In this document: positions 2,143 to 42,070 of the stretch, piece after piece
Layout of the letters: every line of letters starts with the position of its first letter
How positions within the stretch are numbered: position 1 is the stretch's first letter
From: a virus
Lineage: Duplodnaviria; Caudoviricetes
IMG/VR virus record: IMGVR_UViG_3300035208_008180
Reading direction: 5' to 3' (one strand)
DNA: 64,000 nucleotides
Program-made: the position numbers and the translations under genes
The notes under the pieces: generated by a model
What the model saw: the letters and a program-made list of their open reading frames with translations, nothing else
Told to the model about the DNA's origin: nothing
Databases searched by the model: none

Positions 2143-2145
2143 AAA

Positions 2146-2369
2146 ATTTGTCATCTCATAAGCGGAATTCTGTTTACAACCATCATTTATCTCACATTGC
2201 TGTGGTCTTTCGACTGCCTCTACCCGACTTCTCAGGGTCACTCACGCCCTCAGTCTGTTTGAGTTGCATCCTCGGTAGTTCGGACGAACAAAGTTCTCCT
2301 ACCTTAAAAGTGATGATGTTCCGACTTTCCTCTACGGATTGCTCCGCAGCGATGGTTCGGATGACAAAT
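2146..2369 (-). ncRNA. rnpB: RNase P RNA, minimal (catalytic domain only, 224 nt)
   Basis: P1 ATTTGTCATC/GATGACAAAT; P2 AACCATC/GATGGTT; P3 CTGCGGA-GCAA-TCCGTAG; CR-I GAGGAAAGTCGGAA pairing with CR-V ACAGAATTCCGCTTA (P4); P5 CATC/GATG; P6 TCACT/AGTGA; P7 GGTAG/CTACC; L15 GGTA; AGATAAAT before the P2 3' strand. Confidence 0.88.
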
Positions 2370-4021: not shown

Positions 4022-4094
4022 TTGAACCTCACTATATTATATAGTAAGATTCAACTCATTTTAGGTGACTAAATTTATATTTTGTAGAAAAAAG

Positions 4095-4168
4095 TCGGGG
4101 TGGTCGGCTTCGCTCCGACGTTCTTGTGCTCCCGAAGCACATGGGATACTGGACTTCCCCACACCCCG
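4095..4168 (-). tRNA. tRNA-Pro(CGG), non-canonical elbow
   Basis: CGGGGTG..CACCCCG-A; TGTGC-TTCGGGA-GCACA; T-loop AGCGAAG; D-loop has AG for GG. Confidence 0.87.
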
Positions 4169-4171
4169 AAG

Positions 4172-4245
4172 TCAGGGTAGTCGGCTTCGCTCCGACGATC
4201 TCTTGCTCCCAAAGCAAGCGTGATACTAGGCTTCACTATACCCTG
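4172..4245 (-). tRNA. tRNA-Pro(TGG), non-canonical elbow
   Basis: CAGGGTA..TACCCTG-A; CTTGC-TTTGGGA-GCAAG; T-loop AGCGAAG. Confidence 0.87.
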
Positions 4246-6158: not shown

Positions 6159-6443
6159 TTACTTGAGGACTCTATCGAGCCACCAAGCGAAGTCTTTCAA
6201 CTCTGGATCGTTGTAAAGTTCGTGTTTGAAAAGAAGTTTTCGTTTGATGTCTTCTCTCCACATTTTAACCACTACATCCATCCAGTGTTTTCCGACCACG
6301 TATCCATTTATTTTGTTATCAAAAAGGTTGATTTTCATATTGCCTATACCTCGGGTTTCCCAGAGGTAAGCTTCCATCGCCGCCTCATCCGAAAAATCAA
6401 AATGTTCTTCGGAGAAGTAGCGGTAGATCGGCTTGAACTTCAA
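6159..6443 (-). CDS. hypothetical protein, first ORF after attenuator A
   Basis: 94-aa ORF. Confidence 0.55.
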   Translation of the reverse strand: MKFKPIYRYFSEEHFDFSDEAAMEAYLWETRGIGNMKINLFDNKINGYVVGKHWMDVVVKMWREDIKRKLLFKHELYNDPELKDFAWWLDRVLK

Positions 6444-6489
6444 CCAATTTTCACTGATGCCAAACGCATTTTATTTCCCCTTTGTCAAT

Positions 6490-6527
6490 AAAAAAACCCG
6501 GACTCAAGTTTCCTTGATCCGGGTTTT
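6490..6527 (-). terminator. attenuator A intrinsic terminator
   Basis: AAAACCCGGATCAAG-GAAA-CTTGAGTCCGGG followed by T7. Confidence 0.85.
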
Positions 6528-6577
6528 GATTTTCTTCCGGCTCAAGGTTTTGCCCCTGAGCCTTGTCTAGCTCAGGG

Positions 6578-6682
6578 TCAAATGGCGGTATTATCTTCGA
6601 CTTCTGGACGTACCGCCACTGTGGGTATTGTTGTACCCTCAGGTGCCGGTCGTCTTGTTGTTCCGAAGAAATTACTCATCAT
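6578..6682 (-). CDS. leader peptide A (MMSNFFGTTRRPAPEGTTIPTVAVRPEVEDNTAI)
   Basis: 34-aa ORF whose stop abuts the first attenuator helix; composition matches downstream tRNAs. Confidence 0.75.
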   Translation of the reverse strand: MMSNFFGTTRRPAPEGTTIPTVAVRPEVEDNTAI

Positions 6683-6837
6683 TTGACCCTTAAAATAGCG
6701 AAACTTGGATGGGTTGGTTGTCTTAGGCGGTTGGGTAAAACCCAAACCCTCGACCAATGCTCCAAATCTCACTACCTCCTTTATATAGTACGTTCGAGAA
6801 AAAATCAAGCCCAAATTCCGAAAAATTTTTTTCTAAG

Positions 6838-13174: not shown

Positions 13175-14279
13175 CTGCTTCTCCTTCTTGTAATAGGCGA
13201 CGTTCTGAAAATCTAAACTGAGAACCACTTTCCAACTCTACATACAAATGCAAATTTGTTGGCTCAATCCAAGACTCACTGCCACAACGGCGTTGATCTC
13301 CTGGTCGGTAAGTATAGCGACTATTCCATTCGTGGTGCAACACACCGTCTTTGAGAAAAACTCTCTCTCTAGTCTCCACATAATCTACTTTTGTGGGATC
13401 ATCATATTTGTAGTGTGTCGCACACTCCACATACTCTTCATTGGGAAGTTTTGCAAACCAAAAATCGTAATCCCAGTAATTTTTTCTGGGTTTTGGAGCG
13501 TATTCTTTTGTAAATAATCTTGCGACTTTGCTGCCGTAGATAGATTTGGCAAACTTGTCCATAAGTTCAGCATAATTCGGCACAGGTGTTGACGAATTAC
13601 AAACTGCCAAAGATTTTACATTATCCAACAGCACAAAATCTTCCTTGCCAACTTTGACAAACACCCACTTCTTGAGAGGTGTTTTATTAGATGGAAAACC
13701 CTTATGGTCCAATTCCACAGTATAATGGCAATCGAACTTGCCCAAATAAATCAGAACCCCCTGTTTCTTCGTTGTGTAAGATGCCCCCGGAATCAAATCC
13801 TTGGCCTTAACACCCTGCCCCTGAAGCTCGGTGAAATTCTGCGAATTTTTATAATCCTGAGAACATGCGGGCAGCAAAACCAACTCCGTCCCATCCCAAG
13901 CAAAAACAAACTTTCCTTCAAGTCCTTTGCCCCGACTACAATCGCATTCCCGCAGAATGAAAAGCAAATTAGCAACTGAAATTTCAAACTCGAAATCTCG
14001 GGGATCATACACCCGAATATATTCATTGCGAGCATTCCAACCATATGAATGTCGGGCTCCTCCTACACCCTTATTCAAAACAAACCCTTCGGTTGGCACA
14101 TTGGAACACTCAATTGGATCAATCTTTTTATCCCGCCAAGACTGCCAAGATTTCTCTTTCCTGAGAACGCCTTTCTGGTCATAATAAATCACATATGCCA
14201 ATTTCTTGGTATAGGTGCCCTCCCTATTTTGGAAGCCCACCTTGATTTTCTCTGGAATGAATAGCTGTTTTTGATCCAT
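13167..14279 (-). CDS. hypothetical phage protein
   Basis: 370-aa ORF with RBS; RVYDPRDFEFEI motif; no function recognised. Confidence 0.7.
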   Translation of the reverse strand: MDQKQLFIPEKIKVGFQNREGTYTKKLAYVIYYDQKGVLRKEKSWQSWRDKKIDPIECSNVPTEGFVLNKGVGGARHSYGWNARNEYIRVYDPRDFEFEISVANLLFILRECDCSRGKGLEGKFVFAWDGTELVLLPACSQDYKNSQNFTELQGQGVKAKDLIPGASYTTKKQGVLIYLGKFDCHYTVELDHKGFPSNKTPLKKWVFVKVGKEDFVLLDNVKSLAVCNSSTPVPNYAELMDKFAKSIYGSKVARLFTKEYAPKPRKNYWDYDFWFAKLPNEEYVECATHYKYDDPTKVDYVETRERVFLKDGVLHHEWNSRYTYRPGDQRRCGSESWIEPTNLHLYVELESGSQFRFSERRLLQEGEADG

Positions 14280-14282
14280 GAT

Positions 14283-14618
14283 TTACTCTCCTTGTGAAAT
14301 TACGCTGGCATATTTTTTACGAAGCTGTGCTATTCGTTCCATTTGCTCAGGGGTCCAGGGCTCCATCGGCTTGCATATTTTCCCCAATACATCCAGACAA
14401 ATAGCCAGCCGTGCCATATCCTCTGTGCATTCGCTGCCAGTAACGGCGGCAACTTCCTTGACATACTGATCGATATCAGCTTGTTTTATATCGGCTTCAA
14501 ACACATCTGTAAGAGCGAGCCAATTGTCAAGAAGGTAGCTCAAGAAAAAATGTTTGGTTTTTTCCCGCAAATCAAAACAAAATCGATCTTGCACCGTTTT
14601 TATAAATGCTTCTTTCAT
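14283..14618 (-). CDS. hypothetical protein
   Basis: ATGA-coupled ORF. Confidence 0.55.
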   Translation of the reverse strand: MKEAFIKTVQDRFCFDLREKTKHFFLSYLLDNWLALTDVFEADIKQADIDQYVKEVAAVTGSECTEDMARLAICLDVLGKICKPMEPWTPEQMERIAQLRKKYASVISQGE

Positions 14619-18361: not shown

Positions 18362-18572
18362 TGTAAAAAAAGTCTATCTGCCCCTTGTTCTTGCAACCAT
18401 CGAGTCACCACCAAATGAAACACTCGGTGTATTTGCTCTGAAGTTAGTGGCTCCCCAGGTTTTTCATAATTAAAAAAACCTGCTTCCTTTAATTTGGCGA
18501 ACTCCAATTTTTCCAACAAAGATTTGGCGTCTTTGTCTTCAATGAGAATTACTTTCATCATTTCCTCCTAAG

Positions 18573-18649
18573 TCAGCGGGGCAGGATTCGAACACTGCGA
18601 CCTTCAGCTTGTTTATGGCTGATGCTCTGGCCAACTGAGCTACCCGCCG
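18573..18649 (-). tRNA. tRNA-like gene with 9-nt anticodon loop (undetermined or pseudo)
   Basis: CGGCGGG..CCCGCTG-A; canonical D-arm; TCAGC-CATAAACAA-GCTGA; bulged T-stem. Confidence 0.7.
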
Positions 18650-41994: not shown

Positions 41995-41997
41995 AAG

Positions 41998-42070
41998 TGA
42001 GACCGTTGGGATTCGCACCCAAAACCTACGGCTTAAAAGGCCGTTGCTCTACTAATTGAGCTACGATCCC
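41998..42070 (-). tRNA. tRNA-Lys(TTT), A18/G55 elbow
   Basis: GGGATCG..CGGTCTC-A; ACGGC-CTTTTAA-GCCGT; T-loop TGCGAAT. Confidence 0.9.

Follow-up and report, generated by a model that had tools for sequence, protein, structure and literature searches.

A phage-encoded homologue of bacterial type A RNase P RNA without a specificity domain, set within a tRNA gene array

RNase P RNA is one of two universal ribozymes, and the two-domain architecture of its bacterial form is treated as essentially invariant. To our knowledge, forms without a specificity domain (S-domain) have not been described beyond one archaeal family, some organelles, and laboratory constructs. Here we ask what is encoded in a 251-nt gap between the tRNA-Thr and tRNA-Asp genes of a viral tRNA array, and whether the small RNA found there could act as a ribozyme of this class. 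The DNA under study (“the window”) is a stretch of 64,000 nucleotides corresponding to bases 32001-96000 of contig C200, in an assembly of 6.25 Mb and 252 contigs; positions are those of the window unless noted otherwise. We find that the gap almost certainly holds a phage-encoded homologue of type A RNase P RNA that lacks the S-domain and is maintained under purifying selection.

When cmscan is run under an E-value threshold, the gap gives a match of 67.1 bits (E 2.2e-20) to RF00010 (RNaseP_bact_a), with model positions 1-367 aligned end to end; this bacterial class A model is the best match within the Rfam RNase P clan. A whole-genome covariance search recovers the same match, at window 2143-2368 on the minus strand; the RNA so defined is 226 nt long and homologous to bacterial type A RNase P RNA. 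In the cmscan alignment, the S-domain block of ~110 RF00010 positions is reduced to ~17 aligned nt, and a hairpin of ~30 nt stands in its place. The preliminary description, made from sequence alone, had placed a bacterial A-type RNase P RNA without an S-domain at 2146-2369 and had predicted a truncated covariance-model match with an S-domain deletion. The identification held, the predicted match was obtained, and the coordinates were right to within 3 nt. Searched against Rfam with the default gathering thresholds, the window yields 29 tRNAs and nothing else: the curated gathering score of RF00010 is 100 bits, and default annotation misses the RNA because its score falls below this value. Minimum free energies compared with those of shuffled sequences (z -0.91 for the minus strand and -1.37 for the plus strand) are uninformative, because the ribozyme is pseudoknotted. 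A 124-aa plus-strand ORF overlying the RNA (2004-2378) was considered and rejected as a gene; neither Pfam nor PHROG gives a match to it, and the frame continues antisense across tRNA-Asp.

We drew the secondary structure by hand and checked each pair with a script, taking window 2368 as RNA position 1. The structure has canonical pairs throughout and no broken helix, and its catalytic domain (C-domain) is complete, comprising P1-P5, the P4 and P6 pseudoknots, P15-P17 with the L15 GGU, and the conserved regions CR-I, CR-IV, and CR-V. The S-domain is missing as a feature (P7-P14, the T-loop binding site, and CR-II and CR-III, both of which are absent from the RNA), with only a 30-nt hairpin lying between the P5 strands. 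All elements lie on the minus strand. P1 (RNA 1-9/214-222; window 2360-2368 with 2147-2155) has 9 bp, all nine of which covary among the relatives described below, and P2 (RNA 12-18/185-191; window 2351-2357 with 2178-2184) has the bacterial length of 7 bp, with five of the seven pairs covarying. P3 is a 6-bp hairpin with a GCAA tetraloop (RNA 21-36; window 2333-2348), every pair of which covaries. CR-I (window 2319-2332, pairing with 2160-2167; model consensus GAGGAAAGUC) consists of GAGGA and the P4 5′ strand AAG-U-CGGAA. In P4 itself (RNA 42-44 and 46-50 with 202-209), AAG-U-CGGAA pairs with UUCCGCUU around a bulged U45. P5 (RNA 51-54/99-102; window 2315-2318 with 2267-2270) has 4 bp, of which three covary and 100% of the aligned cells are paired. 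The P6 pseudoknot, UCACU/AGUGA (RNA 56-60/127-131; 5 bp, four covarying), joins window 2309-2313 to the L17 loop at 2238-2242.

In place of the S-domain is a stub hairpin (RNA 66-95; window 2274-2303), in which a covarying 5-bp P7-like stem encloses a bulged 20-nt hairpin with a UUU loop. The segment at window 2218-2267 holds the J5/15 GCAA, the helices P15 (RNA 106-108/149-151), P16 (RNA 114-117/140-143), and P17 (RNA 119-122/132-135), each drawn with canonical pairs and each covarying, and the L15 internal loop CGGGUA, whose GGU lies at 2222-2224. Two GNRA hairpins, GUC-GAAA-GAC and CACA-GCAA-UGUG, occupy the place of P18 (RNA 155-176; window 2193-2214). Hairpins at this place occur in 5 of the 25 distinct family members and are lacking in the other 20, and P8, the docking partner of P18, is absent. 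At window 2159-2192 lie CR-IV (AGAUAAAUGA), the P2 3′ strand, and CR-V, where the model consensus is present and the pairing is verified; CR-V is made up of ACAGAA, the P4 3′ strand UUCCGCUU, and an A (ACAGAA...GCUUA). The UUUU tail at the 3′ end (window 2143-2146) doubles as the 5′ leader of tRNA-Asp, whose first base follows directly. Two earlier claims thus held: all the named catalytic-domain helices can be drawn, each with canonical pairs only, and the estimate of about 20 nt inside P7 proves to be exactly 20 nt within the P7-like stem.

The RNA belongs to a family of similar “mini” RNAs that is widespread and conserved. We searched with a pattern of three C-domain motifs (GAGGAAAGTC, AATGA, and ACAGAA) spaced too tightly to admit an S-domain, retained matches whose P4 strands are complementary, and confirmed these with Rfam or with R1, a covariance model seeded only on the nested helices of the C200 RNA, with P4 and P6 left out. 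The complementarity filter removed ~260 of ~280 three-motif matches as chance matches, and two loci that passed it, L106 and L107, failed the covariance model. At least 25 further minis of 198-249 nt were identified, for 26 RNAs in all, each covering the full model. The recovery of 25 further RNAs by a model seeded on its structure, together with covariation of the helices, shows that the RNA is real and far beyond chance. Members lie on IMG/VR contigs, on metagenome contigs, in MAGs (some on contigs binned into Planctomycetota and Opitutaceae MAGs), and in one Achromobacter isolate, mostly within tRNA arrays. IMG/VR supplied ten members, on contigs of 39-343 kb. They include L064, a 207-nt RNA that at 118.5 bits exceeds the Rfam gathering score, and L089, which lies on a 183,648-bp genome with direct terminal repeats that is 100% complete by CheckV. 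Run with default filters, R1 missed L064 despite its top Rfam score. One scan each of genome and metagenome contigs gave at least ~15 more members, and the nearest relative of the C200 RNA is L271, on a metagenome contig (160 bits). Searches by blastn and megablast of 50,697 GenBank phage records, with the C200 RNA and three minis as queries, returned nothing or only full-length bacterial-type RNase P RNAs; BLAST finds no minis because the sequences are too divergent.

Single-motif scans with the two P4 strands gave mostly chance matches, the one real match (L006) being a full-length 364-nt RNase P RNA of 256 bits at 6336-6699 of IMGVR_UViG_3300033402_000020. This 46-kb viral contig places the RNA among tRNAs and near a short tmRNA-like match. 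L006 has the same rare P4 variant as the C200 RNA (GUCGGAA/UUCCGC), suggesting that the mini descends from such an RNA by deletion. Both L006 and a second full-length relative, L001, have ~140-170 extra nt at the position of the stub. It is possible that the full-length RNA that lost its S-domain was phage-borne or came from a host, and that L006 represents the ancestral state.

Other records in the family searches show variations on RNase P RNA number and setting. A Gemmataceae MAG (G008) has four RF00010 matches: a canonical RNA (179 bits), a mini (67 bits), and two RNase P RNA-like copies of 364 and 424 nt that are adjacent on one contig (C117:60008-61042). In a Gammaproteobacteria MAG of 0.6 Mb and 37% GC (L125/L208), the only RF00010 match is a 235-nt RNA (G009:C1:50043-50277; 108.8 bits). 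Its S-domain is reduced, no tRNA genes lie close to it, and it may be the sole RNase P RNA of a reduced-genome organism rather than a phage copy. On the 92-kb viral contig of member L065, a GOLLD RNA (RF02032, 178.9 bits; L065:5642-6103) with a nested tRNA lies 1.5 kb downstream of the mini, showing that large structured RNAs co-occur in such tRNA arrays.

Covariation across the family shows that the fold is under selection. We counted pairs on the 25 distinct sequences in a model-guided alignment; plain MAFFT misaligned the variable regions. Standard pairs occupy 95.0% of pair cells; displacing the 3′ partners by 1-3 columns lowers this to 31-44%. In 53 of the 68 pairs, both partners have changed. 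None of 500 shuffles reached any observed covariation measure. These counts lean towards the nested helices, because the alignment was fitted to them; P4 and P6, which lie outside the model, still covary, in four pairs each among the 25 sequences and in three each in an 11-sequence set. The family includes the P4 variants CGGAA/UUCCG, CAGGA/UCCUG, CGGGA/UCCCG, CCCGA/UCGGG, and CGGUG/CACCG, and the P6 variants CUGUU/AACAG, UCGCU/AGCGA, and CUGCU/AGCAG.

Between the C200 RNA and L271, 20 of the 63 comparable pairs differ (17 by double compensatory changes, with 2 broken), and the unpaired junction columns are 84% identical. By analogy, helices that drift by compensation around fixed junctions are the pattern expected of a working ribozyme, with the caveat that catalysis is untested. 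J5/15 GCAA and L15 GGU are invariant in all 26 members, and neither was part of the search pattern. In RNase P RNAs, these two elements contact the cleavage site and the tRNA 3′ end. The search pattern itself made the motifs GAGGAAAGUC, AAUGA, and ACAGAA invariant, and their presence in every member therefore adds no independent support. Both sides of the stub are conserved in sequence (UAAGGNAGGAGA ... ACUACCGAG), and the stub differs between subgroups.

Contig C200 is 340,072 bp long, with a GC content of 40.5%, a coding density of 87%, and hundreds of ORFs of unknown function. It encodes a tail sheath (PF04984), a phage-type DNA polymerase, helicases, a ribonucleotide reductase, and its own CCA-adding enzyme (C200 175100-176317; PF01743, 125.8 bits), and it has several strong matches to phage-only PHROGs. 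Its 65 tRNA genes and a tmRNA all lie on the same strand, with HNH endonucleases between the tRNAs. We found no terminal repeat on C200 and no match there to the terminase family PF03237, matches to which lie on the low-GC contigs C145, C242, and C85. We interpret C200 as a huge contractile-tailed phage and, given the lack of a terminal repeat and the position of the terminase matches on other low-GC contigs, one that is probably incomplete. The earlier claim that the RNA is phage-encoded therefore held, from these features and from the relatives on IMG/VR viral contigs.

The assembly (G000) contains nineteen further low-GC contigs (737 kb, 37-50% GC), including C137, C226, C242, C44, and C145, and C242 has a second CCA-adding-like gene. 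Because low-GC contigs carry terminases, the bin holds more phage DNA, possibly the rest of the C200 phage. The bulk of the assembly (229 contigs, 5.1 Mb) exceeds 60% GC, and the co-binned bacterium is at ~70% GC; with a gap of 30% GC, this bacterium need not be the host. It has a canonical 399-nt RNase P RNA (265 bits, C185) and its own rnpA (C170), so the mini RNA is an extra, foreign copy. The window had been described as lacking rnpA. This also held, and the absence extends to the whole of C200 and to the five largest related viral records, which include a complete genome; the sole real rnpA match in the assembly is the one on the bacterium. A weak PF00825 match on C137 (19 bits) does not represent RnpA; the 39-aa frame that gives it overlaps a Cys-rich HNH-type gene at its end. 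A separate S-domain RNA, for which a search had been proposed, was not found in the genome at E<=10.

ARAGORN identifies 32 tRNA genes in the window, all on the minus strand. The mini lies within this array, as had been claimed, with tRNA-Thr(UGU) (2394-2467) 25 nt upstream and tRNA-Asp(GUC) (2068-2142) immediately downstream; both genes lie on the minus strand and are called by ARAGORN and Rfam. Abutment to a tRNA is seen elsewhere in the family: in 4 of 11 members, only 0-3 nt separate the 3′ tail from the tRNA that follows, with L089, L065, and L061 at 1-3 nt. No promoter-like or terminator-like site was found on the minus strand beside the RNA, including the gap to tRNA-Thr, and the best promoter match (11 of 12 positions) lies upstream of the array at 6998-6971. 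From the abutment to tRNA-Asp and the lack of a promoter or terminator of its own, we infer that the ribozyme is cut from a polycistronic tRNA precursor.

The phage tRNAs are distinctive at their 3′ ends. Only one of the 65 genes encodes CCA, and in 61 of 65 the discriminator is followed by C74-U75; U75 is found in 9 of 54 tRNA genes on the bacterial contigs. The tRNAs of other mini-bearing phages either encode CCA (L089, L061, L065) or end in C-U-U (L094). C74 together with C or U at position 75 can pair with the GG of L15, as G-C plus G-C or G-U. C74-U75 may thus fit recognition of the acceptor end by L15, and a 3′-processing signal is an equally possible explanation.

The elbows of most phage tRNAs are ordinary. 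Among the 62 parsable tRNAs, T54-T55-C56 occurs in 53, of which 52 also have GG in the D-loop, so that ~85% are canonical. The T-loop has G55 in 6 of the 62, compared with 0 of 47 in the bacterium, and five of the six lack the D-loop GG. These genes lie at window 4094-4168, 4171-4245, and 41997-42070 and at C200 25250, 238355, and 334131. They correspond to Gly-GCC, Pro-CGG, Pro-UGG, Lys-UUU, Phe-GAA, and Met, and five have AG in place of the D-loop GG. G55 with D-loop AG constitutes a covarying rewiring of the elbow. Since rewired elbows are a minority, tolerance of them cannot be the only reason for the gene.

Other phage tRNA genes are unusual in length or anticodon. Outside the window, at C200 235900-238262 (L022/L023), ARAGORN calls several tRNA-Leu genes of 75-79 nt, adjoined by normal tRNA-Leu genes of 84-85 nt. 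Bacterial tRNA-Leu normally has a long variable arm, for which 75-79 nt is too short. A 78-nt tRNA-Phe with the unusual anticodon AAA is solitary and lies far from the arrays, at window 18572-18649.

Compared with known RNase P RNAs, the mini most resembles type A (rnpB; E. coli M1 RNA; RF00010), with which it shares the whole catalytic domain, the bulged-U P4 pseudoknot, P6, P15-P17 with L15 GGU, CR-I/IV/V, a 7-bp P2, and a 3-nt P5/P15 linker (CAA). It differs from type A in having no S-domain (P8-P14, CR-II/III, and the T-loop binding site), in the replacement of P18 by two small GNRA hairpins that most relatives lack, in its length (226 nt versus ~350-400 nt), and in a score below the Rfam gathering threshold. 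Moreover, its gene belongs to a phage, lies in a tRNA array, and adds a second copy to the one that the cell already has.

Engineered C-domains of type A RNAs cleave pre-tRNA and model substrates with and without C5, ~100-500-fold less efficiently (PMC5839562; PMC11143913). In such ribozymes (Eco CP RPR and derivatives), a P6 mimic is beneficial and P18 is dispensable (PMC5839562). The natural minis are likewise closed off where P7 and the S-domain would be, and they match these needs, keeping a covarying P6 and lacking P18 in 20 of 25 distinct members. Unlike the laboratory deletions, they are natural and conserved, have their own conserved stub, and have presumably been selected for adequate function. 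The archaeal type T RNA, the only RNase P RNA of its cell, acts together with several archaeal proteins; its P2 has 3 bp, its P15 is shortened, and its P5/P15 linker has 2 nt (PMC3579882). Like the mini, it is a natural RNA of ~200 nt without most of the S-domain, in which the universal P4, J2/4, and J15/2 positions are kept. The phage RNA, in contrast, has the bacterial 7-bp P2 and 3-nt linker; because it lacks the type T features, we consider the resemblance convergent. The RNase P-like RNA of camelpox and other orthopoxviruses is also virus-encoded and also resembles RNase P RNA, but it has only a loose structural likeness and no pre-tRNA processing activity (PMC3001073), whereas the homology of the phage RNA is unambiguous and its catalytic core is complete.

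Given these data, the mini RNA is likely a working catalytic subunit of RNase P that serves the phage tRNA array, a reading in which catalysis is inferred, without expression or activity data. The RNA would be transcribed within the long tRNA precursor of the phage. Its 3′ end would arise when RNase P cleaves the abutting tRNA-Asp at its 5′ end, and its 5′ end when the upstream tRNA-Thr is trimmed at its 3′ end; release from the precursor by its own activity is likewise an inference. As the catalytic subunit, it would remove the 5′ leaders of the phage’s 65 pre-tRNAs, recognizing its substrates by the acceptor stem, the P4/J5-15 active site, and pairing of the L15 GGU with substrate positions 74/75, and not by the T-loop/D-loop elbow. 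Its protein would most likely be borrowed host RnpA. The C-domain regions that bind RnpA are known from the T. maritima holoenzyme structure, and the mini retains them (P2-P3-P4, J18/2, and J2/4). With these regions kept and no rnpA in the phage, the economical inference, made without RnpA-binding data, is that the host protein is used.

The phage may gain a capacity for tRNA processing that is additional to, or independent of, that of the host, possibly with rewired-elbow tRNAs as the substrates. Two points weigh on this inferred benefit. The mini may be a poor catalyst unless compensated, given the loss of efficiency in engineered C-domains, and a selective advantage is not evident, because host RNase P is complete and 85% of the phage tRNAs have ordinary elbows. 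Two proposals of the preliminary description, that this is a minimal ribozyme processing the array in which it lies and that it tolerates non-canonical elbows, accordingly remain inferences: catalytic activity is untested, and the elbow counts given above qualify the second.

We considered four alternatives to a working catalytic subunit. The first is a decoy or regulator, in which the mini would bind host RnpA or pre-tRNA 3′ ends and titrate or redirect host RNase P, for example to shut down host tRNAs. In its favor, the protein-binding surface of the C-domain is kept in a phage without rnpA, and C-domain-only RNAs catalyze weakly in vitro (PMC5839562). A sponge, however, would need no bulged-U P4, J5/15 GCAA, L15 GGU, or P6, all of which are invariant or compensated, and titration of RnpA would also hurt maturation of the phage’s own 65 tRNAs. 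We regard this alternative as unlikely.

Similarly unlikely is a trans-acting specificity factor, either a phage protein or another RNA of the phage, that would replace the S-domain; for archaeal type T RNAs, S-domain function in trans has reportedly been proposed and not found. Loss of the S-domain lowers affinity and rate in vitro (PMC11143913, PMC5839562), the conserved stub flanks could be a binding site, and C200 has hundreds of ORFs of unknown function among which such a factor could lie. On the other hand, the genome holds no separate S-domain-like RNA at the threshold given above, no gene is consistently adjacent to the minis, whose neighbors are mobile HNH endonucleases, and the stub varies between subgroups.

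That the RNA is a decaying, functionless remnant of a captured host or phage rnpB is very unlikely. The score below the Rfam gathering threshold and the plausible deletion origin offered by the full-length L006, with its matching P4 variant, are compatible with this idea, but no helix is broken, 25 relatives of similar size carry compensatory substitutions, 17 of the 20 pair differences from L271 are compensatory, covariation disfavors decay, and the phage genome is compact (87% coding density). It is also very unlikely that C200 is a cellular replicon (a small-genome bacterium or a plasmid) with the mini as its housekeeping RNase P RNA: one family member is the only RF00010 match of the 0.6-Mb gammaproteobacterial MAG and PF03237 was not found on C200, but the contig has a tail sheath, phage DNA polymerase and helicases, phage-only PHROGs, HNH endonucleases between its tRNAs, multi-copy isoacceptor arrays, and no cellular RnpA, and relatives lie on IMG/VR viral contigs that include a complete genome with direct terminal repeats. 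Each of these alternatives is made less likely by the phage hallmark genes and by covariation in the elements that form the active site and bind the substrate.

The catalytic-subunit reading can be extended to a bolder one, which we judge slightly less likely than not. In this extension, large phages and bacterial tRNA-array elements would carry a portable tRNA-maturation kit built around an elbow-blind, self-releasing ribozyme. The ribozyme would use host RnpA, would read only the acceptor end (L15 GG with C74 and C/U75), and would mature tRNAs with A18/G55 elbows that escape host elbow-reading nucleases or RNase P control. If true, this would be the first example both of a natural bacterial-type RNase P that lacks an S-domain and of a functional RNase P encoded by a virus.

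We found no paper describing a phage-encoded or tRNA-array-associated RNase P RNA in the open-access literature searched, and we cannot exclude a prior description. A survey of huge phages mentions tmRNAs and never RNase P (PMC7162821), the tRNA-array papers searched do not mention RNase P RNA, including a study of mycobacterial tRNA clusters from an RNase P laboratory that reports none, and the only viral precedent in the literature searched is the inactive poxvirus RNA. Since default Rfam annotation is blind to the family, it is probably unannotated in most phage genomes. A conserved phage family of this kind would also offer a natural experiment on the minimal bacterial-type ribozyme, in which P6 is kept, P18 is dispensable, and the stub is new. 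With it, RNase P would join the translation-related functions encoded by viruses, and tRNA processing in phages with dozens of tRNA genes would be explained.

One member resides in a cultured strain, which makes the question directly testable. In the isolate Achromobacter anxifer LMG 26857, a 224-nt mini lies between tRNA-Pro and tRNA-Arg (NZ_CAHLAR010000005.1, ~14076-14299), in an array of ~17 kb (~9.4-26.4 kb) that holds 55 same-strand tRNAs and a permuted tmRNA along with the mini. Elsewhere in its genome, the same isolate has a canonical RNase P RNA of 405 nt.
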